Positions 5,159 through 48,465 of a stretch of 52,539 bases of DNA are shown here, piece after piece (position 1 is the stretch's first letter; each line of letters opens with the position of its first letter). This DNA comes from a virus (Duplodnaviria > Caudoviricetes). The notes under the pieces are model-generated. The model did no database searches. It was not told where the DNA came from and saw nothing but the letters and a program-made list of their open reading frames with translations. The stretch spans positions 1 to 52,539 of the IMG/VR virus record IMGVR_UViG_3300010048_000015; one strand, written 5' to 3'. The position numbers and the translations under genes were made by a program.

Positions 5159-5210
5159 TTTGCGCTCCTTATGGAATTGTGTAGGTGGGTCAGTTCCTAC
5201 GGTGTGTATG

Positions 5211-6052: not shown

Positions 6053-6116
6053 GTTGCAATCCTGCGACCCTGTGGAGAGTAGCGCGTAAGGGTGGCGCGC
6101 GAGTGGAGGTCCGGAA

Positions 6117-10511: not shown

Positions 10512-10810
10512 TGGTTGTCGTCCAGCTCGAGTTTGGCTCGGGTCCTTCGACTAACGAGTCGCGTATGTATCCCTGCGAGGCGAAGGGAATAGGATCTCAC
10601 GCTGCAATGTGCGGTGCGACACCTGCTTCTCTCTGGGAGCGTTGCTGCCTGAATGGACACTCGCGTAACGTCTGGCTTTGTCCGAGTCATGCTTGGATTA
10701 TTGCTCGTGGTCGTGGTGCGTGTGCTGAATGCGTCGAGCGCGGTACATCTAGCGTAGCGATGCTGCGTCCGAAGGACCTGATTCTGCTGAATCACGTAGG
10801 TGAGCTGTAG
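10511..10810 (+). CDS. Cys-rich hypothetical protein
   Basis: TGATG overlap; several Cys/His clusters. Confidence 0.55.
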   Translation: MVVVQLEFGSGPSTNESRMYPCEAKGIGSHAAMCGATPASLWERCCLNGHSRNVWLCPSHAWIIARGRGACAECVERGTSSVAMLRPKDLILLNHVGEL

Positions 10811-10843
10811 GCTTCCAGTCCGACTGTAGGGAGGTAGGGTGAC

Positions 10844-33145: not shown

Positions 33146-33206
33146 CCTAGCCGGGCCTCCGGCGCCGTCCCGCAGCTGCGTCGTATTCCCTCGAGGCCCG
33201 GCTAGG
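33146..33206. terminator. hairpin at convergence of the two arms
   Basis: 14 bp perfect stem CCTAGCCGGGCCTC, 33 nt loop. Confidence 0.7.
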
Positions 33207-33708
33207 TCTCTGCCAACTGGAGTGCTCTCAGCTTAAGCATAATGAATACGTGCAACGGCTCAAGCTCGCGTGGTGTCTCGAAGACGAGGAAGTAGACAAG
33301 GTGTCTCAGTGCATCGTTCGCGTGTCTCCACTTGACGAGCGGAGTACAGAGAAGCAACAGTATACTCAGCTTCCTATCGTTAGCCCACTCCTTCTTGTCT
33401 GAGCCGTGCCACACAACCTTGCAATTGTATAGAGACCGGTATAGTTTCACGAGACCGATGTACTCAATGGACATAAGCTTAGCGAACTCGTTGCCATAAG
33501 CTTTGAACCGCTCGCAGATGATGACGTCCGGTGCCTGTGATATGAGAAAGTTCCACAGGAGCATGTGATGCTCCGTGCTGTCGCCTAGCTGGCCTTGTTT
33601 GACGTGGTCTCGGAGGAACGCCTTTGCCTTGCTGATAGTACTGCTCATGTCGATGTCTAGCATTGCCCAACCGGTAGTGCCGCCTGGGTCGAGTGAGATG
33701 ATCTTCAT
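33202..33708 (-). CDS. RuvC-like Holliday junction resolvase
   Basis: IISLDPGGTTGWA, VIICERF, HANDALRH. Confidence 0.85.
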   Translation of the reverse strand: MKIISLDPGGTTGWAMLDIDMSSTISKAKAFLRDHVKQGQLGDSTEHHMLLWNFLISQAPDVIICERFKAYGNEFAKLMSIEYIGLVKLYRSLYNCKVVWHGSDKKEWANDRKLSILLLLCTPLVKWRHANDALRHLVYFLVFETPRELEPLHVFIMLKLRALQLAET

Positions 33709-33864
33709 GTTTCTCCTTGAACGGTCTCTCTTAGTTCTCTCGCGGTCTATCATTAAGGGCGCCAAAGCTAGATAATCACGTTAGTGCGACGCTATCACGC
33801 ATGGCTCTCATTAAGAGAACACGAGAGAACATCTGTTTCCTTTGATCTTAAGAATGCAGAATTT

Positions 33865-34203
33865 TCATTTGATTAGCGCGTCCACGCTCCAGCCTTTCGT
33901 TGCTAGTTCGAAGTTGCGCTTGGTCCAGCCAGCAGGAGTCGGAAGGTGTCCGGTAGCGAAGTCGATCGCTAGTAGGGCTTCGCGCATAGACAGCTGTTCG
34001 ATTTCCGGATAGTCCTCCAGTCTGTTGCCTCCACGTACGAAGTGGAAGGCCTTTCGGACTTCGGATATACCACTAGGTCTATCTGGTCCTACCAGACCCG
34101 ATAGGTCACTTATGATTCTGCGTAGGGATGCAGCTCTACGCTCTGTCTCCTGCGCCTGGTGGTACTTCTGCATGTACTTCTTATGCGCTTCTGTTTCTGG
34201 CAT
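33865..34203 (-). CDS. hypothetical protein
   Basis: GAAGGA RBS; in operon. Confidence 0.6.
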   Translation of the reverse strand: MPETEAHKKYMQKYHQAQETERRAASLRRIISDLSGLVGPDRPSGISEVRKAFHFVRGGNRLEDYPEIEQLSMREALLAIDFATGHLPTPAGWTKRNFELATKGWSVDALIK

Positions 34204-34546
34204 TGTTGTGTCCTTCCAGGTAGATCATTGCTGCGAATAGGATTCTGGGATTGTCTCGGAAGCCTCCGAGGCCAAGATTGCATAGGTGACATATCAGGCC
34301 TCGGAAGGCACCCGTCTCGTGATCATGGTCGTAGTGGAAGGTCTCATCCTCGCCGATGGGCTCTCTACATAGAGCACATGCGAAGCCCTGCGCTGCCAGC
34401 GTCTTCTCGTACGGATACGCTTTCTTGATCCGTTGAAGCGTCTGCTGGTGCCACTTTCTACAATCCCAGCAGTAGCCGCTAGCGTTGCCTCCAGCCGTTA
34501 CGTAGACTGGATTCCTCTTGCAGCGAGCACAGAGACCCTTAGCCAC
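34181..34546 (-). CDS. endonuclease VII family protein
   Basis: CALC...DHDHETG.FRGLICHLCNLGLG.FRDNP. Confidence 0.9.
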   Translation of the reverse strand: MAKGLCARCKRNPVYVTAGGNASGYCWDCRKWHQQTLQRIKKAYPYEKTLAAQGFACALCREPIGEDETFHYDHDHETGAFRGLICHLCNLGLGGFRDNPRILFAAMIYLEGHNNARNRSA

Positions 34547-34868
34547 CGTTGCTTGCGATCTTCTTCCTAAGCTCGTCGGCTTCCGACTGCAGCTCTTCTA
34601 TCTGCGCTTCCAAATGCGCTAGTCGGGCCTGTGGAGATTTGCGGTCTCCCCGAGTCCGGAGCTCCAAGTTGTCGATGGTAGGGTTCGCACGTTTCTCTCT
34701 GCTGGTGTCAATGAGGTGTACGAATTCGCCCTTCACGAGCTTTCGTCCTAGCTTCTCCTCCATGAGTAGGATGTGAGTAGCTACGAAGCGTCCATTGGCC
34801 TTGGTATGGTGGTAACCGTTCTGGTTGACGAAAGTCGCTCCGTCATCTGCTGCTTGTCCCCTAGGCAT
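34539..34868 (-). CDS. HNH-like protein, degenerate
   Basis: NGY...HILLMEEKLGRKL..GEFVH.ID...NLEL. Confidence 0.75.
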   Translation of the reverse strand: MPRGQAADDGATFVNQNGYHHTKANGRFVATHILLMEEKLGRKLVKGEFVHLIDTSREKRANPTIDNLELRTRGDRKSPQARLAHLEAQIEELQSEADELRKKIASNGG

Positions 34869-35029
34869 GGCTTGCACACCTCCTTACAGAAGCAGTATCC
34901 TTGGAATTTGCGACGCATCTTGTTGTTGGGTAGCATTCGTGCGTTGCGTCTAGCGCGGGCAGCGCCTTCGACGTCGCCGTTGGCTTCACGCAGTCTGGCA
35001 ATATGGAACCAGAGGAAGTACGCGTTCAT
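34781..35029 (-). CDS. hypothetical protein
   Basis: TAATG coupling to polymerase stop; CFCxxxCxxC. Confidence 0.5.
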   Translation of the reverse strand: MNAYFLWFHIARLREANGDVEGAARARRNARMLPNNKMRRKFQGYCFCKEVCKPCLGDKQQMTERLSSTRTVTTIPRPMDAS

Positions 35030-37449
35030 TATAACAACTGGCCCCAATCTGTTCCGACGGTGATATCGACGTCTATGTTCACGTAGTCTCCCACGACTAG
35101 CTGTCCGGACTTGACCATATGATATCGCAGAATGTCTGACACCTTGCCTACGTCGTCCTTATGGCACTCTGCAATGATGTTGTCGTGTACGATGTTGCGT
35201 ACGTAGCCAATCCCCTTAAGTGCTGGCCTTACCCACGTGAAAGCCTGCAGACAAATGTCCGAGGCTGTCGACTGAGGCTTGAAGGCTAGTGCCTCGTTCA
35301 GTATCTCGTGCTTGTTCTCGTTCGTTATGAGCCAGAAGCGGCGATGTCTGCCGAAGACGGTGGTTAGATCTTCGCCTGCTAGGACGGCCTTTCGTGTCTG
35401 CTCTCGGAACTCGACAATGTTAGGTATGACACTGAAGAACGCACGCATACCTCGTTGCGCTTCTGCTAGTGTCAGTCCGTGCTCCTCAGCAATGCTTTTT
35501 GCCTCGCGGCCGTAACCCAGACCGTAGAAGTAAGCCTTGACACGAATGCGCAGCTCCTTCATCTGGTACTTGTCGAGATGTGAAGTATCGCCGTACAGTA
35601 CTGGTGTTAGCTCGTCGAACAAGTCACGAGTGGGATCGTTGAAGATGTCGCGCAGGTAGTCCTCTTTGGCAAGCCAGGTTAGAACTCTGGCTTCGATCTG
35701 TTTGTAGTCGGCGTTGACGAATACGTTGTCTGGGTCTACAGGGGCGAACTGCTTGCGTAGCTTCCAGCCTCGGGTGATGTTCTGAAGATTTGGGTTTCGG
35801 CAAGACGGCCTGCCTGTAGTAGTGCCATGGAGGAGGAACGTTGGAAACACCCTACCGCGATAAACCCTACGCCGTATTCCCTTGACGTAAGTGCCATAAG
35901 ACTTAGCGTCGAGGCGATGCTCTTGAAGAGCTGTGAGAAAGTCATAGTACTCTCCCCATGGTTCTCTAATCTTGGCAATTAGGTTGGCGATGACCTCTTT
36001 GTCAGTGCAAGGTCTCCACTCGCCTGCCTGGTTTCGTTTCCTCGGTACGGTAATGCCGAAGTGCTCCCGCAGGACCTTAACTGTCTGCAGAGGCGAGTTG
36101 GGATTGTAGTCCTTCATGCCTGAGGTGATCTGCATGTCGCCTCGTAGGACTGCAAGCTGCCCACGGTACTCCTGAGCCAGCTCGTCGTTGTACTTGAGAT
36201 CGATTCCGATGCCATTTAGCTCGACGTATATGAGCTCGTTTGATACGCGAACTAGGAAGTCGTGTAGTGCTCGGAGTTCTGGACTACGTGCAAGCATCTG
36301 ACTGAAGAGCTGGTACAGTGCGAAAGTTGCGGCACAATCGTAAGCGTTATACCTGTATAGCACATCTCGGGGGATGACGCCATAGCCATATCCTGGCTTC
36401 AGGTACCGCTTGATGTCGTCGTCGTATCGTGGGGTCCCGAGTAGCTCGACCGCGTTGTACTTGAGACCGTGAATACCTCTACGTTCATCCAGGACATAGG
36501 ATGCGAGCATCGTATCAAACCATAGTCTGACAGCACCGATGCGGTGATAGAGTCCCTCAAGATCGAACTTGCCGTTTTGAGCAATGATTCGATTGTGGCT
36601 TCGAAGGTAAGACCCAAGTCTTTGGAGGACCGTAGGATCGTTGACGACAGTTTCGCCCAGCACAAGAACGCCTCCTGGACGGTATCCGATACCCACACAG
36701 AGAAGACGATGTCTGGAGCTATGCTCGAATGAGGCGTCCTTATCAACATCACTCTCAATGTCAACTGAGACGCCTGTATCGGGAAGTTCGCTGATCGCCC
36801 GCAGCGCTGTGCTACGATCGTCAGCCACGAGGTAAACGGGTTCAGTCCATCCATCGTTGCTCCTGATTAGTTTGCCGAAGTCGTTGACTATGCTGGGGAA
36901 GAAGCCGTCGCCCTTGGGTCTCAGGCATGCGGCGGGGTGGAAGGTCGGTATGACCTCCAGACCAAGCTCCGATACGGGCCTTGGGGGTCCGACGCGTAGT
37001 TTTGTGATACCACCCTTAGTTCCCATGAGCGTTCCGGTCGCGGTGTTACCCAGAGCCACAACCTTTTCGACCCCTCTGTCTTGTAGCTCCTGAAGGAGAC
37101 GGGGCCTACAAGAATGAATCGCGTTCGCGGAAGGGGTTGCGTTGTCGGGTGGTCGGCAGAGGCAGGCGTTTGTGAGAAGAGTGGATGAACGTTCGATGCC
37201 GTAGTGCTCGAGGATCTTGTCGAGGAGCTTACCTGAGGCCCCCACAAAAGGCGCTCCTTTTTGCTGCTCAACCCTACCCGGAGCCTCGCCCATGACAGCC
37301 AGAGTTGCTTTCGGAGGCCCAGCCGATGGGACGTAGGAGTTGTACGCATACAGATCACACCGCTCGCATTCTGCTAGTGGATGATGCCTCTGCGGTTTAG
37401 GTCCTTGAGGCTCAGACACAGTTTCTGGGTGCTTACGCGTCTTGTCCAT
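35029..37449 (-). CDS. polA: family A DNA polymerase with N-terminal family-4 uracil-DNA glycosylase domain
   Basis: UDG: CERC, GEAPG, PFVG, CRPP.N, TFHPA. Exo: DIE, NGKFD, YNAYD. Pol: TTTGR.S...PNLQNI, DYKQIEAR, K...YG..YG, VHD. Confidence 0.95.
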   Translation of the reverse strand: MDKTRKHPETVSEPQGPKPQRHHPLAECERCDLYAYNSYVPSAGPPKATLAVMGEAPGRVEQQKGAPFVGASGKLLDKILEHYGIERSSTLLTNACLCRPPDNATPSANAIHSCRPRLLQELQDRGVEKVVALGNTATGTLMGTKGGITKLRVGPPRPVSELGLEVIPTFHPAACLRPKGDGFFPSIVNDFGKLIRSNDGWTEPVYLVADDRSTALRAISELPDTGVSVDIESDVDKDASFEHSSRHRLLCVGIGYRPGGVLVLGETVVNDPTVLQRLGSYLRSHNRIIAQNGKFDLEGLYHRIGAVRLWFDTMLASYVLDERRGIHGLKYNAVELLGTPRYDDDIKRYLKPGYGYGVIPRDVLYRYNAYDCAATFALYQLFSQMLARSPELRALHDFLVRVSNELIYVELNGIGIDLKYNDELAQEYRGQLAVLRGDMQITSGMKDYNPNSPLQTVKVLREHFGITVPRKRNQAGEWRPCTDKEVIANLIAKIREPWGEYYDFLTALQEHRLDAKSYGTYVKGIRRRVYRGRVFPTFLLHGTTTGRPSCRNPNLQNITRGWKLRKQFAPVDPDNVFVNADYKQIEARVLTWLAKEDYLRDIFNDPTRDLFDELTPVLYGDTSHLDKYQMKELRIRVKAYFYGLGYGREAKSIAEEHGLTLAEAQRGMRAFFSVIPNIVEFREQTRKAVLAGEDLTTVFGRHRRFWLITNENKHEILNEALAFKPQSTASDICLQAFTWVRPALKGIGYVRNIVHDNIIAECHKDDVGKVSDILRYHMVKSGQLVVGDYVNIDVDITVGTDWGQLL

Positions 37450-38233
37450 TTGCCCAGTTTCGCAGGGTCTGTAGGTTGGCGTTCAGGAGACCTGCATCGA
37501 CGTGATCGACGTCGGCGCCGAAGTAGTTCTTGGGTCTTCCTGGGCTCTCGTCGACTCCGAGCTTGAGGCCAGCCATGGTGTAGGTGAAGGGCGCTGTCGC
37601 GTCGACGCTAGTAATGAGGTCGGGGACAGCTTGTGCTGCATAGAGGATTTCCTTCGGCCATATCCGCGACATGCCCAGGAAGTGAATCGGGTGCGCGCAG
37701 TGGTCGTTGATCCAGTAGGCCATCTTGATACGTGCCTCTGGTTCGATCTCCGCTGTCGTCCACTTCGAGAGGCCGAGCATGATCGATATCTCGAACCTCT
37801 CCTCGATGCCTACGTAGCGAGCCACGCAGTCCTTCATCTCACTCAGGCTCGTACCCTGGACCACTCCCATGAACTGAACGGGTCTGGGAATCATCAGAGC
37901 GTGGTAGATGTCCCAGTAGTGCATGAAGCTCTCGACGAGCCTGATGGTCTCGTTCTGATCGCGCATCGCGTCGGGCAGAACGAGGATGTCTGCCTTGAGA
38001 TCGTAGACGAGCCATACGAGGTGGTCATTGTGCATGGACTTGCCGCTCGCCTCCTCGTAGGCGCCGTTGTCCAGCATAACGGTTGAGTTCAGGTTTGCAT
38101 TGAGAATGCGGTAGTGGTCTCGGTAGAACTCAGCGTACGTACGAACCTTGAGCCCTTCGGGAATGACCATGTGTAGCGGCTGGACCGCTGTCAAGTTGAG
38201 CAGACTCGCTGGAGGAATCAGTGCGACTTTCAT
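37433..38233 (-). CDS. divergent TGT/DpdA-fold guanine transglycosylase-like protein
   Basis: LDNGAY, LPD, GVVQG, IHFLG, SVD motifs; adjacent to que genes. Confidence 0.75.
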   Translation of the reverse strand: MKVALIPPASLLNLTAVQPLHMVIPEGLKVRTYAEFYRDHYRILNANLNSTVMLDNGAYEEASGKSMHNDHLVWLVYDLKADILVLPDAMRDQNETIRLVESFMHYWDIYHALMIPRPVQFMGVVQGTSLSEMKDCVARYVGIEERFEISIMLGLSKWTTAEIEPEARIKMAYWINDHCAHPIHFLGMSRIWPKEILYAAQAVPDLITSVDATAPFTYTMAGLKLGVDESPGRPKNYFGADVDHVDAGLLNANLQTLRNWANGQDA

Positions 38234-38532
38234 TCCTTGCCTTCGAACATTTCCTTGAGAGTAATGAAGCCCTCTCTGTCCGTATAAGGGTTCTGCTGCA
38301 GCATGTGCGATACAGACCGCTGGAGCAGGTAGAGCTTGATGTAGGTGAAGCGTGCGTAGTTAGCCAGGTCGAGAACCTCTTGTATCGCCTCTTCGAGAGT
38401 GTCTACCTGGAAGAACTTCAGCTCTCCATGCAGGTTCCGACCTTCTTCTAGGCGCTCCTGACACCTCTGTACGAAGCTCTCGTCGGCTTCTCGCAGCAGA
38501 GCCTCTAGCGCCTCGCCTATACTTCCGCTCAT
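38230..38532 (-). CDS. putative all-alpha (MazG-like) dNTP pyrophosphohydrolase
   Basis: ERLEEG...HG...LEEAIQEVLDLANY acidic helix; ATGA coupling both sides. Confidence 0.6.
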   Translation of the reverse strand: MSGSIGEALEALLREADESFVQRCQERLEEGRNLHGELKFFQVDTLEEAIQEVLDLANYARFTYIKLYLLQRSVSHMLQQNPYTDREGFITLKEMFEGKE

Positions 38533-39077
38533 TGTCCGATCGCCTTCAGGAACTCGTCCTTGGCAGTGCGCTCGTGGATGCCAAACACGCCACGCATCGT
38601 CGCCGTGTAGGTGGTAGTGCCAGGGGCTTGGACTCCTCTGATTGTCATGCACAGATGCTCACACTCCATTACTACTGCTACGTCTTCGGTCCCGAGTCGT
38701 TTTTCGAGCTGGTCTGCTATGTCTTCAGTCAGTTCCTCCTGCACGCATAGCGCCCTTGCTTGGTTCTGCGCTAGCCTGGCTATCTTCGATAGACCAGCGA
38801 TATGGTCCTGTGGAATGTATCCGATGTCAGCGTGCCCGAGGAATGGAACGACATGATGCTCGCATAGGCTAACGATCGGAATCCTCTTGACGACGACCAT
38901 GTTCCGGATCTTCGTCGGAAACGTTGTGAAGTGGAAGTCTTCTGGTGTCGTCATCTCCTTCAGCATCTTGAGGAATCTTGCTGCTGTACGTTCGGTGTGA
39001 GGGCTTTCTTCGTCCATACCTGCGACGTTTGCGAGTATGTACTGGGCTGCGTGGTTTAGATTGTGAAACTCTAGCAC
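38529..39077 (-). CDS. folE: GTP cyclohydrolase I
   Basis: SLCEHH..PF.G, GLSKIAR, VQEELT, HLCM..RGV. Confidence 0.97.
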   Translation of the reverse strand: MLEFHNLNHAAQYILANVAGMDEESPHTERTAARFLKMLKEMTTPEDFHFTTFPTKIRNMVVVKRIPIVSLCEHHVVPFLGHADIGYIPQDHIAGLSKIARLAQNQARALCVQEELTEDIADQLEKRLGTEDVAVVMECEHLCMTIRGVQAPGTTTYTATMRGVFGIHERTAKDEFLKAIGQ

Positions 39078-39784
39078 TATGTTCCCCTCTTGTTGACGCC
39101 GTAAATGTACTGATGGACTTGGATGTTAAGGCGCCAGGGCACCTTGTACTGCTTGATGAGCTCGACTATATCGGTAGCTCCCCACGTGTCGCTCCAGACC
39201 GGACCGACGAAGACCGAAACACCTGAGTCCTTGACTACGGTATTCCAGACGTCCATAGCGACCTCGAAGTCCTCGGCATCCGCGACTGTGAACTTGACTA
39301 CGCCTCCGTACTTGGTCATCTCTACCAAGTTGCGTGATCGCTCGTTGAGCCAGGTCTTCTCTCCTGAGCCTGGAAGCTTCCAGTCCATGACGAGCTGCGT
39401 GCCCATCAAGAAGACCTCGGCTGGTACTTCGAACGTACCGTTGGTAAAGACCTCCGTTGTCCATGGAAGCTCAGGCCCGTCGAATAGCCGTTGCAGGAGG
39501 CTGATGAGTTCCTTGTGAGGTTGGAGGAAGGGCTCGCCTCCTGTGAAGCAGATGTTCGACGCGCCTGTCTCCTTGTACTTCGCCTCGATGTCCTGCGCGA
39601 GCTCCCACGGCTGACGAGAGTACTGCTCTTCTCGATACAGCTTCGGGTCGATCGCGAACTGCGAGTCGCAAGGCCAGGAGGGGCACTTCAGGTTACACCC
39701 TGCGAAGCGTACGAACTGCGTCAGGATGCCAACTCGAGGGCCTTCTCCTTGCGTCGACACATAGTGCTCGACTAGTCTCATCAC
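39077..39784 (-). CDS. queE: 7-carboxy-7-deazaguanine synthase (radical SAM)
   Basis: STQGEG...FVRFAGCNLKC..WPCD, FTGGEP, TNG. Confidence 0.95.
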   Translation of the reverse strand: MMRLVEHYVSTQGEGPRVGILTQFVRFAGCNLKCPSWPCDSQFAIDPKLYREEQYSRQPWELAQDIEAKYKETGASNICFTGGEPFLQPHKELISLLQRLFDGPELPWTTEVFTNGTFEVPAEVFLMGTQLVMDWKLPGSGEKTWLNERSRNLVEMTKYGGVVKFTVADAEDFEVAMDVWNTVVKDSGVSVFVGPVWSDTWGATDIVELIKQYKVPWRLNIQVHQYIYGVNKRGT

Positions 39785-40167
39785 GTTGCTCCATCATAGG
39801 ACGCCCACGTCTTCGGAGTCTCCGAGACGTATATGATTAGGCCGTAGCTGTCGTGCTTCTCCCTGAGCGTTGCATCTACGCCCTTGTGCACGATGTCCCA
39901 GATGTGTCGAGCGATGTTCTCGGCCGTTGGGTTGAAGTCGACGACGTCATTGATGCATTTGTGATCGAATCGTCCGTCGATTATAGCCTTGAAGCCGTCG
40001 AGTGCTCTGTAGTCGAGAACGAATCCGATCTCGTCGAGATCCATCGTATCGATCTCGATCTCGACTTGGTAGTTGTGTCCGTGCATCTGAGCACACGGAT
40101 GCGTCGGAGGTAGACCTCGAAGGAAGTGTGCTGCGCTGAAGTCGAAGCGCTTCTTGATGCTATACAC
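39781..40167 (-). CDS. queD: 6-carboxytetrahydropterin synthase
   Basis: FSAAH...C..MHGHNY, FDH, NPTAENIA, VSET. Confidence 0.97.
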   Translation of the reverse strand: MYSIKKRFDFSAAHFLRGLPPTHPCAQMHGHNYQVEIEIDTMDLDEIGFVLDYRALDGFKAIIDGRFDHKCINDVVDFNPTAENIARHIWDIVHKGVDATLREKHDSYGLIIYVSETPKTWASYDGAT

Positions 40168-40876
40168 TGGCTACCGCCGTTCTCCAGTACTCGGTGTCCT
40201 CGTAGATGGTCTGGTCGGGAACGTGAGCTTCTGCAAGTGCCTCTAGGCGCTCGACGCATGTGCCACATCGTCCGCAGTGGTGCTTACGGCCGTTGTAGCA
40301 CGACCAGGTGAGATGCACAGGCACATCGAGGCGCTTGGCTTCGAACGCGATCTCGGCCTTAGTCTTGTCGAGGAAGGGGAGTACGAAGCTCCAGTCGTCC
40401 CTGATGACGTCGAGGTTGGCGACACGAATAGTGTCCCTCAGCAAGTTCCAGAACGACGGTCTGCAGTCGGGATAGATAGCTGCGTCGCCGTTGTGAGGTG
40501 CGGCTGCTACGTAGTGGCCGTCCTCGGCAATGCACACTCCGACGGCTATAGCCGTCATGATCATGTTCCTGTTTGGAACGATCGTCAGCTTCATCGTCTC
40601 GTGCGCGTAGTGGCCCTCGGGTACCTTGACCTTCTCGTTGACGAGGCTGGACTTGGAGTCCCTGATCGCGTCGCCGAAGTCGTTGAGTCCGATGAGTGAC
40701 CAAGGTAGGCCGAATCGCTCCGCTGCCATCTCTGCGAACTGAAGTTCCTTGACGTGTCGTTGCCCGTAGTCGAACGATACGACGTGAGGTCGGTAGTTAG
40801 TACTGACAAGGTAGTGTAGCATCGTGACGCTGTCTAGGCCTCCGCTCACGATCGCAACACCCGTAGTCATTTTCAC
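40160..40876 (-). CDS. queC: 7-cyano-7-deazaguanine synthase
   Basis: SGGLDS, YGQRH..E, VPNRN, YPDCR, TWSCY..HCGRCGTC..R. Confidence 0.97.
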   Translation of the reverse strand: MKMTTGVAIVSGGLDSVTMLHYLVSTNYRPHVVSFDYGQRHVKELQFAEMAAERFGLPWSLIGLNDFGDAIRDSKSSLVNEKVKVPEGHYAHETMKLTIVPNRNMIMTAIAVGVCIAEDGHYVAAAPHNGDAAIYPDCRPSFWNLLRDTIRVANLDVIRDDWSFVLPFLDKTKAEIAFEAKRLDVPVHLTWSCYNGRKHHCGRCGTCVERLEALAEAHVPDQTIYEDTEYWRTAVASV

Positions 40877-43038
40877 GTTTCGTCCTTTCCCAGTAGACTG
40901 TTGTACGTTACCGATCTTCCTTCTCCACCTCTAGCTATGAGTCCTCGACCTACCAGCGTCTTCTCGATATCGTCCATCTCTCGAGCCGTCAGGTGATAGG
41001 TCTGCATAAGTCTAGATCGAGCGAAGTTGCCTCGCCGTTGAATAGCGTGCAGTATGAGTTCGATCTTGTGCTCGAGTGGTCCCTTGCCGATGTTAGTGAT
41101 GATGTCTTGTGCATAGCGTCGCCAAACGTCTCCGTACATAGCTGCACGAACAATGTCTTGCTCTTCTACTACAACGTCGCCTTCGAGACACCGTGACGCT
41201 GCTAGCAGTATAGATGCCTTGAGGATCGACGTAGCTAGTCGTACGTACATCGGAACCATCGTCACTCTAAGGTCCTCGCCACTGTCAACAGCTAGCTGTG
41301 TCAAGGTCTGCTCGACTTCATTGTACCGCGACCACGCGCGCTCTGTCATCTTGACATCCACAGGCACTGTGTGAACGCCGACAACTTTGCCTTTGAACGT
41401 GGTTGGTGCAGTGCGTTCGTGTGCTTTGGCAATCTGTTGGAGTTCGGTCAGTATGCGATCCCGTCCAGTGAGATTCTCTTCTTCAGGCGGGCCGAGAGGT
41501 CTAACCTTAGATGGATCTGATTCGGCTGTTATGAATACGAATCGGGGAAGGAAGCCTGACTCAATGTCTTCCGTATCAACAATGCGCTGCATCTTTGTCT
41601 TGATGCCACCTGCGAAGAGTATTACTCGTGGGTCTCGAATGACAATCTCTTCCTTACGCAGGAGGCGCTTCTGGGTTCTGCCGTCGTACATCTTAGTCAG
41701 GAACTCTTTCATTCCTGACATGTAGTCCTTTCTGGACATCTGTTCCATAAAGCCAGTGAACTCGTCTCGTAGAAAGAGACTCACGCGTCCTGGCCTCGTC
41801 GATAGAGCCTGCATGAAGCCCTCTACTGAGCCGTCTGTCGCTAGCAGGAGGTCCGGATCGATTTCCAGGACTATGTCCATCGCTAGGTCCATCGCCGTCG
41901 ACTTTCTCGTCAGCGTCGTATCTGCCAGGATCATAAACCAGAGGTTCGGTTGTATAGACCCATAGCGCGTGAGTAGTCTGACAGAACCAGCAAGGAGCGT
42001 CGACAGTGCTGTGAAAGCTCCAGCTTCGTGATACTGGATCGCTGCGTCTCCTACTTGCTTCGCCCAATCTACGTACCTTTCTATGAATGACGGCTCTCTG
42101 GCTAGAGCTTCTCTTTCCGCTCGTGTGACGAGCGCCAGCTCAGTACCAGGCGGCAGAGTGGCCATCCGCGACTGTTCGGCATGCCGAGACTGAGCTCTAC
42201 AAATGTCCTTCCAAAGGCGTATAGGCTGACCGGTGAACTTGTTACATGCCGCGTCTCTACATACTTGAAATACTTCCGGTAGCGAAAGTCCAGCTTCCAA
42301 ACAGTACATTTCCAACCTGAAGAGAGCCGAGCTACGGTCGGTCTCAGGCTCCCTGTGGAAGAGCGTGAATGCGGCCCCGTTGATCCTGTGCCTGTTGCGT
42401 TCAAGGATCTTCTCTCCATCCTCTGGAACGAACTCCGGAAACGGTATGTCTAGGTATTCGTATCCGGGAGTTTGATCATACAGGTCTCGGAAGTCAGAGA
42501 GTGGGTGAGTGTCATCGTTCCAATCCAAGACTCTGACTTTAGGCGCCTCAGCTCCCTGTCCATATTTGTAGTTTCGAGTGCCAGGAATCCTGAGTAGCTG
42601 CGTGAGATCCCATCCGCTTCTATCACTGCCTTGATCGGAATGGTGATAAGCAATGCGTCGGGCGGCATCCTCAGCATCCTCAGCATCGACTGGTTGTGAT
42701 AGCGTCCAGAGTGCTTGGTACCTTCCAGGACTCGTCTCGTAGCAGATAGAAGGTTTGATACGAAGGTATTTGGGGTGACACTCGTCGAGGTCGGCCCAGA
42801 TGCATCCGACTTGGTCGACGTTGACTTTGACACGACGCCTCTCCTTCAGTAGCTGAGGACAGAAGTACACATTCTCTACTAGTGCTCTTGAACGGATGAC
42901 TTCTTCGGCTCGCTGTGCCTCGTCAGGGTACGAGAAGAATTGTTCTGCGAACTTGCCCTCAGGCCTACGGGTAGCGATGCAGATAAAACCTGTCGTATCT
43001 CCATATGCAGTTTCAAAGAAGTCGACTAGTCCTGCCAC
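40873..43038 (-). CDS. RepB-like primase fused to DUF3987-type helicase
   Basis: WADLD, ETSPGRYQALW, LLRIPGT.NYK; RKST, RDEF, SGFLPRF. Confidence 0.85.
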   Translation of the reverse strand: MAGLVDFFETAYGDTTGFICIATRRPEGKFAEQFFSYPDEAQRAEEVIRSRALVENVYFCPQLLKERRRVKVNVDQVGCIWADLDECHPKYLRIKPSICYETSPGRYQALWTLSQPVDAEDAEDAARRIAYHHSDQGSDRSGWDLTQLLRIPGTRNYKYGQGAEAPKVRVLDWNDDTHPLSDFRDLYDQTPGYEYLDIPFPEFVPEDGEKILERNRHRINGAAFTLFHREPETDRSSALFRLEMYCLEAGLSLPEVFQVCRDAACNKFTGQPIRLWKDICRAQSRHAEQSRMATLPPGTELALVTRAEREALAREPSFIERYVDWAKQVGDAAIQYHEAGAFTALSTLLAGSVRLLTRYGSIQPNLWFMILADTTLTRKSTAMDLAMDIVLEIDPDLLLATDGSVEGFMQALSTRPGRVSLFLRDEFTGFMEQMSRKDYMSGMKEFLTKMYDGRTQKRLLRKEEIVIRDPRVILFAGGIKTKMQRIVDTEDIESGFLPRFVFITAESDPSKVRPLGPPEEENLTGRDRILTELQQIAKAHERTAPTTFKGKVVGVHTVPVDVKMTERAWSRYNEVEQTLTQLAVDSGEDLRVTMVPMYVRLATSILKASILLAASRCLEGDVVVEEQDIVRAAMYGDVWRRYAQDIITNIGKGPLEHKIELILHAIQRRGNFARSRLMQTYHLTAREMDDIEKTLVGRGLIARGGEGRSVTYNSLLGKDET

Positions 43039-43146: not shown

Positions 43147-43659
43147 TTAAGGGAGAATGCTCGCGTTGCCGCGTACAGCACCGGCCTTGGCACCTGGAGC
43201 AGGAGAGCCTGACTTCATGCCCTCCTGGTAGGGCGCGAAGCCACGCACTTCGATCCAGGACATCGGGTCGTCCTCGGGATTGGCCTTCTTAGCGTTCTTG
43301 TTCACGCCTCGGCGAGCCATGACGTGCTGTCCGATGTACGCCTCGGGAGCGTCAGGGATTTCGAGGCCGCCCTTGGCTGTCGCGTCGTTATACATGTCGA
43401 GCGCCTTGAGCAGGTTGATGATCGTGTAGAGCGCGCCTTCCCAGCAGCACGCTGTCCACTTGATCTGCCTGTCGGCGTAGGGACCGTCCTGAACGTCCGC
43501 GGTGAACTTGAGGAGCGGCTTGTCGGGGTTCGCCTCTGACTGCGACTCGGCGAACTCGACGTCGGTGATGACGACGTGGTAGCTACCTGAGGGCAGATAG
43601 CCGCTGCCGTCACCAGACTTGGATTCTCGTTCTGATACAGTATTCACTTTGATAGACAT
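43147..43659 (-). CDS. ssDNA-binding protein (DUF669-like)
   Basis: LPSG.YHV.ITDVE...DGPY; follows Sak4-like gene. Confidence 0.75.
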   Translation of the reverse strand: MSIKVNTVSERESKSGDGSGYLPSGSYHVVITDVEFAESQSEANPDKPLLKFTADVQDGPYADRQIKWTACCWEGALYTIINLLKALDMYNDATAKGGLEIPDAPEAYIGQHVMARRGVNKNAKKANPEDDPMSWIEVRGFAPYQEGMKSGSPAPGAKAGAVRGNASILP

Positions 43660-43684
43660 GTGACTTGTACCTTGTACCTTTCGA

Positions 43685-44635
43685 CTACTTGTGGATGAGT
43701 TCGAAGATGTCGTGCATGTTCGGCTGAACTACGACGAGAGGCAGGTTGCCCGACCTGTCTTTGGTCACGTATCCCTCTAGCGCGCCCGTCAGTAGCATCC
43801 GACTAACCTCGGTAGGCTTGGTCTCGTCTCCTGATGCTCCCTCCTTCGTGTATAGGTACATTACCTGATCGAACAGGCCCGCTACCTGATTCGCCAGCTT
43901 ACCGGGTAGGTCGGGACGCTTCCACATAACGCCCTTGTTGTCCCGCTCGGTAGTCTCGTGGCAGAGAAAGATGAAGTTGATAGGCAGGTCTCGGAACTGC
44001 CTTAGCGTCTTCCTCATGCGGTTGGTTGACGCGCCCCAGTCGTGGAGACCTGGCACGTCAGGATCTCGGTCTGGATGGGCAGCGAGTGTGCGTCCCATGA
44101 CCCAGTCCATGTTGATCTTCTGCAGCTCGGTTCCGGTGTCGATCGTGACCGTTCGGAAGTCGGGTAGGTCGGCCGAGTTGTAACACTGACGATCGAGCTC
44201 GTCGTAGATGGCTTCGAACTGTTCCCAGGTGACCGCACCTTGCTGCTGCGGATCGGGAATGATCTGAATGTTCTTGTTGAGCTGGAGCTTTCTCAGAGTC
44301 GACGTTCCAGCCTCGGCGTTGATGTACAGCATCGGCCCGAGATGCTTAGAGCTAGCTCCCTGACCTGCGAGGTGCGTCTTGCCTGAACCTGGCAGGCCGT
44401 AGATCATGGTGTTGACGATATCGAGCTCGGACTTTGTCGGAGGAGCAATCGGAATACCTGCGAAGAACCTAGGGCTCGCCAGTGCAGCTATGACCTGCTC
44501 CTTCTCCTCCTCCACTGCGGCTGCTCGCTCGTCGTCAGGGAGTATGTCTTCCGACGTCTCTTCCTTCTCGAACTCGAAGTCGTCTGGACCTGCTGTGTCT
44601 ACTGCTTCTTGCGCCCTGTCTGCTGCGTCTCCCAT
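43685..44635 (-). CDS. AAA_24 / Sak4-like ATPase
   Basis: YGLPGSGKT, TVTIDT, FLCHE, KDRSG.LP. Confidence 0.85.
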   Translation of the reverse strand: MGDAADRAQEAVDTAGPDDFEFEKEETSEDILPDDERAAAVEEEKEQVIAALASPRFFAGIPIAPPTKSELDIVNTMIYGLPGSGKTHLAGQGASSKHLGPMLYINAEAGTSTLRKLQLNKNIQIIPDPQQQGAVTWEQFEAIYDELDRQCYNSADLPDFRTVTIDTGTELQKINMDWVMGRTLAAHPDRDPDVPGLHDWGASTNRMRKTLRQFRDLPINFIFLCHETTERDNKGVMWKRPDLPGKLANQVAGLFDQVMYLYTKEGASGDETKPTEVSRMLLTGALEGYVTKDRSGNLPLVVVQPNMHDIFELIHK

Positions 44636-45858
44636 TACCCTATGCCTTTGTGATCGGTTGTTGCTTCGCGTAGTGCGTAGTACCTCGGTTTGACTTCGTA
44701 CAGTGTGTCAAGTGCGTATTGGTAGTCGCCACCCTGATCCATATCCATACAAGGTTCTCTGTAGGCACAGAAGCCGCAGGAGAAGCGTCCTGGCGACGGG
44801 TATAGTGCAAGGTTCGGATTTAGCATCTCGCAAGCCTGCTCGTAGAGGTGGCGTTCGAAGCTTTCGAGCTGTATCGGGCGCTTGTAGACCCTGTGGTCCT
44901 GAATGAACTTTGGACCCTCAGTCTCAAGCCAAGAGATGTACTCGTTGTAAAGACCTTCGTCGTACGCAGCTCTGTCACGCTGCATCACTGTCGCACGGAA
45001 AGTTGCTGCATCGGTGTCCTGGTTCTGACTGATGCTGAACGATCTTCCGAGTCTAACGACCTTCAGCTCGGTTGCAGGTTGCGGAAAGCCCTTCTTTAGT
45101 TCTATGTACCTGAAGCCTCGGATGTTAAGGCCTAGTGCTTTGCGTAGTGCCCAAACGTAGCCTGCGACTTGGTCGTCGAGCTCGAGGATGACATCTGCGT
45201 CCTCACCCATCAGCCTGATAGTTGTCTTCCAATCAACAATCCAGAAGTCGCCTCTGTTATCCCTTACAATCACATCAATGCGGCCTTCGTAGACTACGGG
45301 CAAGCCTATCCAGTCAGCTTCGTACCTCAAGTAGTGTCTGCGCTCAGGGTCTTCAGGCATCGTGATATCTCGACTAGCACAGACCTTAGCCCAGCACTTG
45401 TCGCACTTGCACATGAGCGGCGTACCGTCAGGATGCAAGATCGGTACTTGGAACTTGACCTCGACGTAGATCGGTACGAACTCAGCCACTGGGAGGTGAT
45501 TCATCACGTACCAGTGAATCATCCCCCTCCCCAGCTTCACCTGCTCGTCGTAGTCGCGCTCCTCATCGTCGCCCAGGCCCCTGTCCTGCAGAGAATAGAA
45601 CGCCTTCTTCTGCCTCTGTGCCTCGTCGAAGAAGGCAGCCTCTGCGAACTGAGCGATGAGTTGTTTCGGAGCGCCCCACGTCTCGGGATTGTACATCGCT
45701 TCCATACCCTTATGGAACGCGATTCCGAACTCGAACATCGACAGCGTCTTAGCAGGCTGCAGGTCGAGATCGAAGGACCAGTGATGACGCCGACGGCAGC
45801 CTCTGAACGATCTAAGCTCGGTCGTATGAATTTCATGAACCAGCTGATCAGCTTGCAC
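44635..45858 (-). CDS. Cas4-like PD-(D/E)xK exonuclease
   Basis: GCRRR, G.AFH, GRID...IVDWKT, C..C.YR..C. Confidence 0.85.
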   Translation of the reverse strand: MQADQLVHEIHTTELRSFRGCRRRHHWSFDLDLQPAKTLSMFEFGIAFHKGMEAMYNPETWGAPKQLIAQFAEAAFFDEAQRQKKAFYSLQDRGLGDDEERDYDEQVKLGRGMIHWYVMNHLPVAEFVPIYVEVKFQVPILHPDGTPLMCKCDKCWAKVCASRDITMPEDPERRHYLRYEADWIGLPVVYEGRIDVIVRDNRGDFWIVDWKTTIRLMGEDADVILELDDQVAGYVWALRKALGLNIRGFRYIELKKGFPQPATELKVVRLGRSFSISQNQDTDAATFRATVMQRDRAAYDEGLYNEYISWLETEGPKFIQDHRVYKRPIQLESFERHLYEQACEMLNPNLALYPSPGRFSCGFCAYREPCMDMDQGGDYQYALDTLYEVKPRYYALREATTDHKGIG

Positions 45859-45885
45859 TGGAACTCCTTTAGGCTGCTTAAGACT

Positions 45886-45915
45886 ATTATATCATGGATC
45901 ATCTATGTAGCACAA
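45886..45915 (-). promoter_or_regulatory. promoter for replication/modification operon
   Basis: TTGTGC-18 bp-TATAAT with TGn extension; TTGTAATACA at 45921..45930. Confidence 0.7.
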
Positions 45916-45924
45916 CCCCTTGTA

Positions 45925-46446
45925 TTACAATGACGGTATGACGTTCTCAACCTGATCAGGGTCGGTCTCGCTACGGATCTCGTCTCGCTCTTCCTGCGTA
46001 CGAGCCTCAGCACGCTCCTCCGCGACGTCGTCGGCGGTCGGTGGGTAGAGCTGAGCGTCCAGCTCGGGCAGAAGATTCTTAATGCCGACTCCTGCGAGTA
46101 GTTGGTGAACGAAGCGTCTCACGACCCATCGGTTGGGCTTGTTGCAGCGCTTGTGTACGATCCAGCCGAACCGTTGTGTCCTAATCCAGTCTTCGGTCTG
46201 TGCCGAGAACTTGCCTCGAGAGGAACCGCGGCCCTTGCCTACGATCTTGCACTCGCAGTAAGTCGTCGGTCTGGCGACCAGCGCTTCGACAGTAGCGCAT
46301 GCGGCTGCGATGGCACCGATAGCGACAGTCTCCTGCTGTAGGACTTCCGTCTGGTTGTCGTCTGCTTCTTGCGCTGCCCATAGACTTGCGATGAAATGCT
46401 CGGCTGCATCATTGTCCCCGAAGCCCAGTAGCACTATTCGGGCCAT
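45925..46446 (-). CDS. hypothetical protein, possible Zn site
   Basis: CEC...HKRC; RBS. Confidence 0.7.
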   Translation of the reverse strand: MARIVLLGFGDNDAAEHFIASLWAAQEADDNQTEVLQQETVAIGAIAAACATVEALVARPTTYCECKIVGKGRGSSRGKFSAQTEDWIRTQRFGWIVHKRCNKPNRWVVRRFVHQLLAGVGIKNLLPELDAQLYPPTADDVAEERAEARTQEERDEIRSETDPDQVENVIPSL

Positions 46447-46630
46447 TGACTTCCTCTCCGTCTAGAAAGAATCGGTGGTTGTGTCCTCTGCATACGTCGC
46501 GTGCTGAGTGGTAGTGAACGACGACGCCCTCGACATCTGGGTTGGATATGCGATCCTCCTTGGACTTGTACTTCGCGTCTTCGACCATCTTGAACTCGTC
46601 GATGGCAGGCGTGACGAACATATCACTCAT
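46409..46630 (-). CDS. hypothetical protein
   Basis: GGAGGAG RBS. Confidence 0.6.
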   Translation of the reverse strand: MSDMFVTPAIDEFKMVEDAKYKSKEDRISNPDVEGVVVHYHSARDVCRGHNHRFFLDGEEVNGPNSATGLRGQ

Positions 46631-46964
46631 GACTACTCCTCCCGTCGCTAATGATGCTCTGCTGGTAGAGTTGCTTACGTAGGATCTCGCAGCCGCCTCG
46701 AATTGCTTCGTCGACGCCATCCTGCGAGATCCAGGGATCGCTCCAGGCTGAGAGGTTACCAACATAGTAGTCGGGCCCGATCAGCTTGCCCTTGGCCTGA
46801 TAGTAGACACCGAAGCCTGGCCTGGGACCCTGAGGCGTTGGTATCGAAGGTACGAAGACGAGCTGCCAGCTGATGATTCGTAGCCCAAGACTCTGACTCT
46901 CCAGAGCGGAAAGGACCATCGGCTTGAGTCGCTCTTCGATTTCGGTAAGGTCTGAATCAAGCAT
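46623..46964 (-). CDS. hypothetical protein
   Basis: GGAGG RBS; overlaps neighbours. Confidence 0.65.
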   Translation of the reverse strand: MLDSDLTEIEERLKPMVLSALESQSLGLRIISWQLVFVPSIPTPQGPRPGFGVYYQAKGKLIGPDYYVGNLSAWSDPWISQDGVDEAIRGGCEILRKQLYQQSIISDGRSSHE

Positions 46965-48465
46965 TGAAGTACGCCTCCGGATTGGTTCTGTCGCCCAGAA
47001 TGTATTCTAGGGCTTTCCACTTGTTCGCTATGCGCGTCTTTCTTCCGAGGTCGACAGTGTCGCGTGCCATGATATCGATGACCTGAACGGGATGGATTTG
47101 ACCGATGCGGTGAGCTCGGTCCTCAGCTTGCCTATTCTTAGTCGGGTTCCAATGGCGGTCGAAAAATACGACTGTCGAAGATCGGTGAAGAGTGATACTC
47201 TCCCCTCCAGCTGCGATCGTTCCGCAGAGGACCTGAATGTGACCAGCCTGGAAGTTTGTCTCATAGAGGTCCCGGTCGTGTTGAGATACACTACCAGTAT
47301 ACGGCCGAGCGACAATTCCTCGAGCCTCAAGACGCCGTACAGCAAGGTGACTCATGCTCCTCGATTGACTGAATACGACGATCGACTCGTCAGGATTGCC
47401 ATCGATAATCTCTTCCAGGTCGTCAAGCTTGACGCTTGGATCGACTAGAGTGACCTTGGATCGAAGGTGGCGCCAAGGCTCAACGCCTGGTCCTCTGAAG
47501 ACCGGGTCCTGCTCATAGACTTCTTCGAAGTCCACAGACGCTAGGGCGAATTGTTGGAGACGGACTAGCTGTGCGACGACTGCGCCTGCAGCGAGGGGCT
47601 TGTCCCTGTTCTCTCCGACCCATGCGATCATCTCTCGACGCATCTCGTCGTAGGCCTTACGTTGTCCTGGAGGAAGGGTAACGAAGCGCTCGGTGTACGT
47701 CTTCTTTGGCAGATCGATTCCGACTTCGGACTTCTTTCTGCGCAAGTAACAAGGGTAGATCGTCGATAGCATTTCGGCTGCGCCTACGGGATTCACTCCA
47801 ACGACCTTCTTGAAGCTACGTCCCATCGCTGACTGCTGCTCGACTACGCAAGTCTCCTTAACAAATCTCCAGTACGACCTGAAGTCTTTGGGCCAGAGCC
47901 AGTTGAGGACGCTCCAGAAGTCCTGGGGCTTGTCGTCTGCAGGAGTGCCGCTGATGCCCGTCTTGTACTTAGTCTTGAGAGCCTTCAGTGCTCGTGTCTG
48001 TTGCGCTGTGCGATTCTTGATCCTGTGGACTTCGTCTGCGATGATGTGGAACCACTCGATCTCCTTGAGCACCGGCATAAGACGGAGAGCTTCGTAGTGG
48101 ATGATGACGTAGCGAGGCCAGCCACCTTCCTTGATGGCCTTTCTCAACGCGTAGTCGAGGAGCATACGCTTCTTTCTGTCGATCACCCAGATGACAGTGT
48201 TCGGACCAAGAAGCTCGACGATCGTCTTCACCCATGTGTTCCAGTGCGAGCCTGCTGGTGCGACGATGAGCGTCGGGTGACCTCCGTAGATGTGGGGATT
48301 GCGCAGTTCGATGTCACGTGCGACGCCTTCGTACGTCTTGCCAAGGCCCATGTCATCGGCGATGAGTGCTGCCTCTGCGACTTCGCCTTCGAGTGGGACT
48401 AGCTTCGCTACGCCTTCTTGCTGGAAGTGGTACAACAGGTTCCAGTACTTGCCTCTAACTTGCAT
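46957..48465 (-). CDS. SNF2-family helicase
   Basis: ADDMGLGKT, DEVH, SGTP, QAEDRAHRIGQ. Confidence 0.95.
   Translation of the reverse strand: MQVRGKYWNLLYHFQQEGVAKLVPLEGEVAEAALIADDMGLGKTYEGVARDIELRNPHIYGGHPTLIVAPAGSHWNTWVKTIVELLGPNTVIWVIDRKKRMLLDYALRKAIKEGGWPRYVIIHYEALRLMPVLKEIEWFHIIADEVHRIKNRTAQQTRALKALKTKYKTGISGTPADDKPQDFWSVLNWLWPKDFRSYWRFVKETCVVEQQSAMGRSFKKVVGVNPVGAAEMLSTIYPCYLRRKKSEVGIDLPKKTYTERFVTLPPGQRKAYDEMRREMIAWVGENRDKPLAAGAVVAQLVRLQQFALASVDFEEVYEQDPVFRGPGVEPWRHLRSKVTLVDPSVKLDDLEEIIDGNPDESIVVFSQSRSMSHLAVRRLEARGIVARPYTGSVSQHDRDLYETNFQAGHIQVLCGTIAAGGESITLHRSSTVVFFDRHWNPTKNRQAEDRAHRIGQIHPVQVIDIMARDTVDLGRKTRIANKWKALEYILGDRTNPEAYFNA

Follow-up and report, generated by a model that had tools for sequence, protein, structure and literature searches.

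The 52,539-bp IMG/VR record IMGVR_UViG_3300010048_000015 of a Caudoviricetes virus (hereafter the window, that is, the whole stretch of DNA analysed) carries on its minus strand, at 37433-38233, a gene for a protein of 266 amino acids (aa), which profile comparisons and a structure model identify as a predicted TGT-fold transglycosylase of the DpdA3 subfamily. The gene lies in a string of overlapping genes that leads from a primase through the synthesis genes of the 7-deazaguanine base preQ0 to a DNA polymerase (PolA). Among systems of the known DpdA3 kind, this one is new and very abundant, and it comes with a new accessory family, which we have termed small100. As to how phages with fully 7-deazaguanine-substituted DNA make it, the field assumes that DpdA3 acts after replication. 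The gene neighbourhoods described below lead us to another reading, to which we assign a probability of about 0.45: the base would be exchanged before replication, on the deoxyguanosine (dG) or dGMP pool, with the help of host kinases and the coupled PolA.

Identification of the 266-aa protein

No direct match to the 266-aa protein came from Pfam, PHROGs, NCBIfam or PDB sequences, nor from 50,697 phage records screened by tblastn and megablast, so that profiles and a structure model were needed. A word-indexed search returned eight proteins, the window's own among them, and a phmmer scan of 1.84 billion representatives returned 1035 clusters (at 50% identity) with E <= 1e-3, 322 with E <= 1e-10 and eight with E <= 1e-30. 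With these 1035 clusters and the 131 non-redundant viral loci examined below, the clade of the window is very large, and it is uncultured. A family alignment and profile were made from 132 sequences drawn from the phmmer matches. Invariant across these relatives are D55, N56, G57, D88, R168, H184, G187, D211 and N253, while V124 and G127 of a VxQG motif are nearly invariant. Individual members matched DUF6610 (39/132), TGT (4/132) and DpdA (2/132) weakly, and 81 of the 132 matched phrog_20335.

A tblastn search with a central member of the family reached the gene annotated as "DNA guanine transglycosylase" in Flavobacterium phage immuto_2-6A (hereafter immuto), as well as unannotated open reading frames (ORFs) of six Bacillus phages and of Weizmannia phage Youna2. 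With hhalign, the 132-sequence profile scored 99.3% against immuto DpdA3 (E 2.9e-20, 246 columns) and 99.05% against gp056 of Campylobacter phage CP220 (E 2e-18, 201 columns); against DpdA1 of phage 9g, it scored only 0.9%. Immuto and CP220 are among the phages on which the definition of DpdA3 rests (Cui et al. 2023, PMC10516641).

The AlphaFold2 model of the 266-aa protein is an eight-stranded barrel (pLDDT, the predicted local distance difference test score, 94.6; pTM, the predicted template modelling score, 0.92). A Foldseek search with this model had TGT or DpdA in all 50 rows listed (best E 3.1e-8). In a VIA-align search of 48,161 chains, the top four matches were ArcTGT 1iq8 (Z 16.2), DpdA 7ui4 (Z 15.6), a TGT (Z 15.0) and QTRT2 (Z 14.3), with generic TIM barrels close behind at Z 13.9 or less; the model aligned to 236 of the 413 residues of bacterial DpdA (bDpdA, 7ui4). 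In the profile alignment to bDpdA, D211 of the window protein corresponds to the nucleophile D256, and Q126 to H181 (for the roles of D256, H181 and F265 in bDpdA, see PMC10164549). D55 is aligned with the LDSGAF motif of 9g DpdA, and the equivalence of D88 is by position only. With its catalytic Asp residues conserved, the protein is predicted to be a catalytically intact TGT-type exchanger. Only about 55 residues remain after D211; the protein thus lacks the large Zn-bearing insertion, which carries the F265 wedge in bDpdA.

Membership in DpdA3 thus has four sides: profile homology to the CP220 and immuto proteins, the TGT barrel, the catalytic residues, and the adjoining 7-deazaguanine synthesis genes. 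The original prediction, made from the sequence of the window alone, had described a compact TGT-fold protein lacking an obvious Zn-binding Cys cluster, and the profiles, the AlphaFold2 model, Foldseek, VIA-align and the missing insertion all agree with it; what it had not recognised is that the protein falls into an already named subfamily. Net charge and isoelectric point (pI) were considered as a proxy for DNA binding and dropped as uninformative, given that the pI of the family is spread from 4.3 to 9.5 (median 5.8; window protein 5.4). We also observed that, across loci L004-L011 of the census described below, the DpdA3-like protein diverges faster than its flanks (39-60% identity, versus 70-82% for PolA and 72-88% for the primase).

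The overlapping gene string

The genes of the string are listed in the order of transcription; E values are those of the family matches.

40873-43038, minus: primase/helicase (RepB-primase N-terminal domain and DUF3987), first gene of the conserved string; Pfam DUF3987 E 1.9e-17, RepB_primase E 8.6e-8; phrog_10514 E 8.7e-88
40160-40876, minus: QueC (7-cyano-7-deazaguanine synthase), 238 aa, no Gat domain; Pfam QueC E 2e-48; TIGR00364 E 1.2e-43
39781-40167, minus: QueD (6-carboxy-tetrahydropterin synthase, PTPS fold); Pfam PTPS E 1.4e-30; phrog_2389
39077-39784, minus: QueE (radical-SAM 7-carboxy-7-deazaguanine synthase); phrog_2076 E 2.3e-28; Fer4_12 E 7.4e-6; Radical_SAM E 3e-4
38529-39077, minus: FolE (GTP cyclohydrolase I); Pfam GTP_cyclohydroI E 1.6e-50
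38230-38532, minus: small100, 100 aa, uncharacterised virus-only family; found by clustering and profile, no family or fold match
37433-38233, minus: predicted DpdA3-subfamily 7-deazaguanine transglycosylase, 266 aa, minimal TGT-fold (beta/alpha)8 barrel; profile comparison, AlphaFold2 model, fold searches
35029-37449, minus: PolA with 3'-5' exonuclease and N-terminal family-4 uracil-DNA glycosylase (UDG) domain; Pfam DNA_pol_A E 7.2e-54, UDG E 6.7e-26, DNA_pol_A_exo1 E 9.2e-9

From the primase to PolA, the ORF coordinates give seven successive overlaps, of 4, 8, 4, 1, 4, 4 and 17 nt, the last being that of the PolA start with the stop of the DpdA3-like gene; the unbroken string that had been noted is real. 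The ATG of small100 overlaps the FolE stop by 4 nt, and a longer ORF that starts with GTG from 38652 overlaps FolE. The stretch first assigned to the operon, 35029-40876, holds the genes from QueC to PolA, whereas the primase that had been counted with them falls outside of it.

The Pfam, PHROGs, profile and model results likewise uphold the view of a preQ0-pathway operon joined to a compact TGT-fold protein and a polymerase, and so do the absences of QueF, a Gat domain and a kinase. We did not find a QueF homologue in the window by tblastn, and QueC lacks a Gat domain, its match to the 418-position phrog_1550 profile being confined to positions 144-369. Nor did we find a kinase, for dNMP or otherwise: the sole ORF of the window with a Walker-A motif is the AAA_24 protein at 43685-44635, and tblastn of the window with five phage kinases gave nothing. 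In the whole record, the plus strand carries the structural genes and the minus strand the replication genes; there are no tRNA genes in its 52,539 bp. In this lytic-type phage genome of ~52 kb, the region forms the core for DNA modification and replication.

Census of related viral loci

Scans of IMG/VR with four sub-alignments of the family (A1, A4-A6) yielded 179 loci on viral contigs (L004-L182). Adding L001-L003, which are phage loci from GenBank, and the window itself brings the census to 183 sources, or 131 at 90% identity of the DpdA3-like protein. Neighbours were counted by clustering of all neighbouring ORFs, among the loci with enough flanking sequence:

PolA immediately downstream of the DpdA3-like gene: 109 of 118 loci
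FolE: 102 of 108 loci
MazG-like gene of ~130 aa, for example at 7386-7742 in L010: 83 of 108 loci
small100: 78 of 108 loci (92 of 133 with a hidden Markov model, HMM)
MazG-like gene and small100 together: 74 of 108 loci
neither MazG-like gene nor small100: 21 of 108 loci
MazG-like gene without small100: 9 of 108 loci
small100 without MazG-like gene, the window included: 4 of 108 loci

Where at least 5 kb of upstream sequence was available, QueC was present in 80/90, QueD in 84/90, QueE in 80/90 and FolE in 85/90 loci. The modal order, primase-QueC-QueD-QueE-FolE-MazG-small100-DpdA3-PolA, is complete in 52 of the 131 loci, and most of the others are truncated versions of it. In 79% of 117 loci, the DpdA3-like stop and the PolA start overlap or directly adjoin one another, a figure that is possibly overestimated as the longest ORFs were used. 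The profile of the MazG-like neighbours matched dCTP pyrophosphatase 1 (E 1.4e-12), MazG-type structures (E 1.3e-12 to 1e-10) and, weakly, MazZ (E 0.0076), while single members stay just below the Pfam thresholds for MazG and dUTPase_2.

A quick tree was made of 118 of the 131 representatives with CP220 and Brevundimonas phage vB_BpoS-StAshley; 13 proteins outside 220-300 aa were left out, and branch support is by the SH-like approximate likelihood ratio test only, the careful search being unfinished. In this tree, the window and L004 are sisters (support 99) in a clade of eight rows (100), which is nested in a clade of 93 rows (88), 76 of which carry both the MazG-like gene and small100. Immuto and CP220 pair (96) inside a group of 23 rows (90) that is sister to the 93-row clade of the window. 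As the window clade is nested where 76 of 93 rows have both genes, the absence of the MazG-like gene from the window is a secondary loss.

Some relatives carry other genes within the string. L008 has a 137-aa ORF (7051-7464) with a LAGLVDGEGS-type motif in the slot of the MazG-like gene of its relatives, and a paralogue upstream at 5005-5343; by its motif, it looks like a homing endonuclease and may mark displacement of the MazG-like gene in a sub-lineage. Extra genes occur between small100 and the DpdA3-like gene in the close relatives L005 (7106-7908), L006 (7090-7880) and L009 (269-823); these inserts comprise a 184-aa protein with no Pfam match, an ORF of ~80 aa, and a small ORF that is basic and rich in Cys and extends over the start of the DpdA3-like gene. 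In L012 (3890-5331), ORFs of 294 aa and 186 aa, possibly base-tailoring enzymes, stand between QueC and QueD.

The small100 family

The ORF at 38230-38532 had been put forward as a MazG-like dNTP pyrophosphatase that could deplete dGTP or supply dGMP. We found no sequence, profile or fold match to back this assignment. The window protein has no match in Pfam, PHROGs, NCBIfam, PDB sequences or the 50,697 phage records, and none of 60 family members matched the nucleotide-pyrophosphatase Pfam families (MazG, MazG-like, dUTPase_2, PRA-PH). The small100 profile found nothing significant in the PDB (best entry 2p06, E 0.35) and scored 2.9% by hhalign against a profile of 50 genuine MazG-like neighbours; in the ESM Atlas, small100 falls with viral hypothetical clusters only.

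The AlphaFold2 model (pLDDT 76) consists of two long helices, 5-35 and 46-80, forming a hairpin. Its best Foldseek E value was 7.4, the top row being the YpjD pyrophosphatase at a probability of 0.03, and VIA-align returned generic helical hairpins (best Z 6.4). Seven close relatives of the protein were found, and the nearly invariant residues of the family are F20, R27, G31, Y35, G36, E52, D55, N58, Y59 and K66. Thus, an E52-x2-D55 pair is nearly invariant, and there is no conserved ExxE. The metal-binding ExxE...ExxD is what we take to be the signature of MazG/nucleoside triphosphate (NTP) pyrophosphohydrolases, and in the genuine MazG neighbours, E49, E52, E77 and D80 are invariant. Two non-significant top matches of small100 are to the pyrophosphatase-like entries 2p06 and 2gta, which, with the E52-x2-D55 pair, constitute a lead and not support. 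As the Pfam, PHROGs, NCBIfam, PDB, ESM Atlas, profile and fold searches gave nothing significant in its favour, we rejected the pyrophosphatase assignment as unsupported: small100 is a conserved accessory, not a demonstrable pyrophosphatase. A complex prediction of small100 with the DpdA3-like protein scored 0.01, which is no answer and counts as evidence neither way. In the distant loci L084 (6087-6314) and L170 (2789-3097), a DUF3310 protein (E ~1e-14) stands directly upstream of the DpdA3-like gene, where the main clade has small100.

Hydrolases and kinases beside DpdA3 genes in other phages

In CP220 (L189, 4862-7355), DpdA3 (gp056) is the middle gene of a three-gene island between the tail-sheath and tail-tube genes; on one side is gp055, in which an HD phosphohydrolase and an AAA_33 kinase are fused, and on the other gp057, an AAA_28 kinase. 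Around DpdA3 of immuto are an AAA_28 kinase homologous to that of CP220 (32% identity, E 5e-19), a PRA-PH-type hydrolase, a phosphoribosyltransferase (PRTase) and a formyltransferase. Bacillus phage BSP7 and Weizmannia phage Youna2 share the order primase-QueC-QueD-QueE-FolE, small ORFs, P-loop protein, DpdA3-like gene, PolA, in which the P-loop gene overlaps the start of the DpdA3-like gene. StAshley (L187, GenBank ON529865) has QueC-QueD-QueE, a 266-aa ORF at 6060-6860 (family HMM E 2.2e-27) and a UDG-PolA gene, and further on, a ribonucleotide reductase, a DNMK-type kinase, FolE and a PRTase. In L179, a DNMK-type kinase gene is directly upstream of the DpdA3-like gene, and in L182, L181 and L084, a dUTPase/DCD-like gene is downstream of it.

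As a control, the surroundings of DpdA1 in phage 9g were inspected, and no hydrolase or kinase was found among gp01-gp10. In at least six phage lineages, DpdA3 genes thus have NTP pyrophosphatases or an HD hydrolase as well as nucleoside or nucleotide kinases on their flanks, whereas 9g DpdA1 does not; in the sample examined, such neighbours are particular to DpdA3 loci. In the cultured phages StAshley, BSP7 (L003, 7001-7789) with its relatives, and Youna2 (L002, 7001-7771), the DpdA3-like gene beside the Que genes and PolA is annotated "hypothetical protein".

Proposed base exchange on the nucleotide pool and its alternatives

Three DpdA3 phages, CP220, phiST and immuto, have been measured so far, and complete replacement of G has been reported for each; CP220 DNA contains 100% dADG, and free dADG nucleoside was found in CP220-infected cells (Cui et al. 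2023, PMC10516641). According to the same source, DpdA3 failed in an E. coli plasmid assay, and the other DpdA types, DNA-inserting or assumed to be so, modify at most ~30% of G.

For the window phage, homology indicates that FolE, QueD, QueE and QueC make preQ0 from GTP, ADG being possible if QueC stops early, and that the DpdA3-subfamily enzyme swaps guanine for that base, with D211 as the nucleophile and D55 as the acid/base. In the course of events that we propose, it would do so on the deoxyguanosine or dGMP pool and not on finished duplex DNA. The modified nucleotide would be phosphorylated by the host's Gmk and Ndk and incorporated by the translationally coupled PolA. In most relatives, the DCTPP1-like MazG encoded just upstream would turn dGTP into dGMP, both feeding the exchange and excluding G. 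With the MazG-like gene secondarily lost, replacement in the window phage may be high but incomplete. Extended to the subfamily, the proposal becomes more tentative, and we give it somewhat less than an even chance: DpdA3-type minimal barrels would be base-exchange enzymes of deoxynucleosides or deoxynucleotides, fed by a MazG-like or an HD hydrolase, with dedicated or host kinases rebuilding the triphosphate and the polymerase writing it in. Exchange at the level of the pool is indirectly suggested by the hydrolases and kinases that recur beside DpdA3 genes, by the lack of the wedge insertion, and by the 100% replacement taken together with free dADG and the failure in E. coli. We found no paper placing DpdA3 at the nucleotide level in our literature search; a modified-dGTP route has been mentioned for Campylobacter phages (Hutinet et al. 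2019). The pre-replicative idea is better supported by genomic context than the literature acknowledges.

Several observations weigh on the other side. The nearest solved structures (ArcTGT, DpdA and bacterial TGT) act on polynucleotides, two of them going by their entry titles and all by the known enzymology of the superfamily; the sole exception we noticed is the TGT-like protein Cap10 (entry 9ntn, rank 11 in VIA-align), which presumably has a protein substrate. The window itself has no genuine MazG-like gene by clustering or HMM, and its scanned ORFs did not include an HD-domain or dUTPase-type protein. As it has no MazG-like gene, HD hydrolase or kinase, its route would be wholly host-dependent, with host dGTP competing. 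Since phage replication regions often contain NTP pyrophosphatases and kinases, the adjacency of such genes can be coincidental. The replication module of the window is syntenic with that of 9g, where DpdA1 sits in the same slot, and 9g DpdA1 modifies plasmid DNA (Hutinet et al. 2019). Lastly, modification by DpdA3 was concluded to be post-replicative (Cui et al. 2023, PMC10516641), and a paper of December 2025 still states so.

The conventional explanation, a serious contender that we nevertheless place somewhat below even odds, is that the DpdA3-like enzyme is a DNA transglycosylase that inserts preQ0 into finished or nascent DNA after replication, as 9g DpdA1 and bacterial DpdA do, while the MazG-like, kinase and small100 genes serve general nucleotide metabolism or are unrelated. 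It is the reading given in the literature (Cui et al. 2023, PMC10516641), and it agrees with a fold and catalytic residues that are those of TGT and DpdA, with a genomic slot between FolE and the polymerase genes that is also that of 9g DpdA1, and with a window that manages without a MazG-like gene or kinase on a core module of Que genes, small100, DpdA3 and PolA. It leaves, however, no role for the hydrolases and kinases encoded beside DpdA3 in CP220, immuto, BSP7/Youna2, L179, StAshley and 83 of the 108 clade loci, and depletion of dGTP would be counter-productive if G had to be incorporated first. The minimal barrel is without the insertion on which bDpdA carries its base-flipping wedge, and both the inactivity of DpdA3 on plasmid DNA in E. 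coli and the gap between ~30% and 100% replacement (PMC10516641, as above) fit such a DNA-level enzyme poorly.

A co-replicative action seems improbable to us: at the fork, the substrate of DpdA3 would be single-stranded or nascent DNA, and the enzyme, in physical coupling with PolA and perhaps aided by small100, would give near-complete replacement with no modified dNTP. A base-flipping wedge is unneeded on single-stranded DNA, and the frequent overlap of the DpdA3-like stop with the PolA start, even if overestimated, would suit such coupling; the kinases and pyrophosphatases are left unexplained, and the transglycosylase of 9g is equally near its polymerase, yet only ~25% modification is reached there (Hutinet et al. 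2019). That the operon serves tRNA instead, by raising preQ0 or queuosine for the host or by modifying tRNA and not phage DNA, has been raised for phages that carry Que genes and in which no DpdA was recognised (Hutinet et al. 2019). For the window, we consider it very improbable, given the DpdA3-family enzyme, the lack of tRNA genes, and the presence of the base in the DNA of all three DpdA3 phages analysed (PMC10516641).

Should the pool-level exchange proposed here hold, it would be the first pre-replicative purine replacement by transglycosylation and a new enzymatic way to 7-substituted 7-deaza-dNTPs. The fact that 100% replacement is reached by DpdA3 phages alone would have an explanation, as would the resistance of such phages to restriction and other DNA-targeting defences, and small100 would be a new accessory of the pathway. 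The order FolE-MazG-small100-DpdA3-PolA and the hydrolase/kinase islands of CP220 and immuto make the question biochemically testable, also in cultured phages.

The UDG-PolA fusion

The UDG domain occupies PolA residues ~28-180 (TIGR00758 UDG_fam4, E 1.4e-35, score 122.5 versus a cutoff of 125.3). The translation contains GEAPG and HPAA, which we take to be UDG motifs, and several Cys residues. The fusion is kept across the clade, with a median PolA length of 790 aa. The same UDG-exonuclease-PolA fusion occurs in Clostridium perfringens phages (e.g., CP3) that have no Que or DpdA3 genes, which rules out that it is specific to the DpdA3 system; the polymerase, described as atypical in the original prediction, is an ordinary phage UDG/3'-5' exonuclease/PolA fusion. 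Adjacency to the polymerase was also considered as a sign of pre-replicative action and ruled out: it is not diagnostic because it is shared with 9g DpdA1, which is reported to act on DNA. A search with PolA for close relatives lacking DpdA3 yielded only four loci, all compatible with the module. In L082, two tandem UDG-PolA genes (8743-11022 and 11187-13481) lie downstream of one DpdA3-like gene.

Comparison with known systems

The DpdA3 phages CP220 and immuto resemble the window in having minimal barrels of ~255-266 aa of the same subfamily beside 7-deazaguanine synthesis genes, and, like the family of the window, DpdA3 phages have an NTP-pyrophosphatase-type gene nearby (CGPG_00068 in phiST, according to PMC10516641; the PRA-PH hydrolase in immuto). 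Sequence identity to the window protein is ~23-24%, and the two groups are sister clades in the quick tree. The window differs in having the full preQ0 pathway without QueF, DpdL, DpdM or DpdN, a siphovirus-sized 52-kb genome, the extra small100, and no kinase.

Enterobacteria phage 9g shares with the window a Cas4-like exonuclease, Sak4/AAA_24, DUF669, primase, Que genes, FolE, a transglycosylase and a polymerase, and its DNA carries dG+ at about 25-27% of G. Its transglycosylase is of the DpdA1 subfamily, remote from the profile of the window family, and has 317 aa versus 266 aa; 9g has a Gat-QueC, a clamp gene between DpdA and the polymerase, and neither a MazG-like gene nor small100 beside DpdA.

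The bacterial DpdA/DpdB system (Salmonella Montevideo, 7ui4) has in common with the window the TGT fold and the positions of the Asp nucleophile and the Asp acid/base. In contrast to the window protein, bDpdA has large insertions (the Zn site and the F265 wedge) and requires the DpdB ATPase (PMC10164549); the window has neither of these and a Gln in place of His181. With the Z-genome system (PurZ, MazZ, DatZ), the analogy is one of logic only: the relatives of the window have a MazG-type gene beside a base-changing enzyme and a polymerase, and CP220 has an HD hydrolase, an arrangement that would suit a scheme in which the canonical dNTP is depleted, the dNMP supplied, the triphosphate rebuilt and then incorporated. 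There is no PurZ homology, the proposed step is base exchange and not ring modification, and the window is without the hydrolase.

Other genes of the replication arm

The remainder of the replication arm of the window (33202-34877 and 43147-48465) encodes a RuvC-like resolvase (by motif), an endonuclease VII (E 1.3e-18), an HNH-like ORF, a DUF669 protein, a Sak4-like AAA_24 protein, a Cas4-like exonuclease with a C-terminal Cys cluster, and an SNF2 helicase. This arm is syntenic with that of the Queuovirinae phage 9g.

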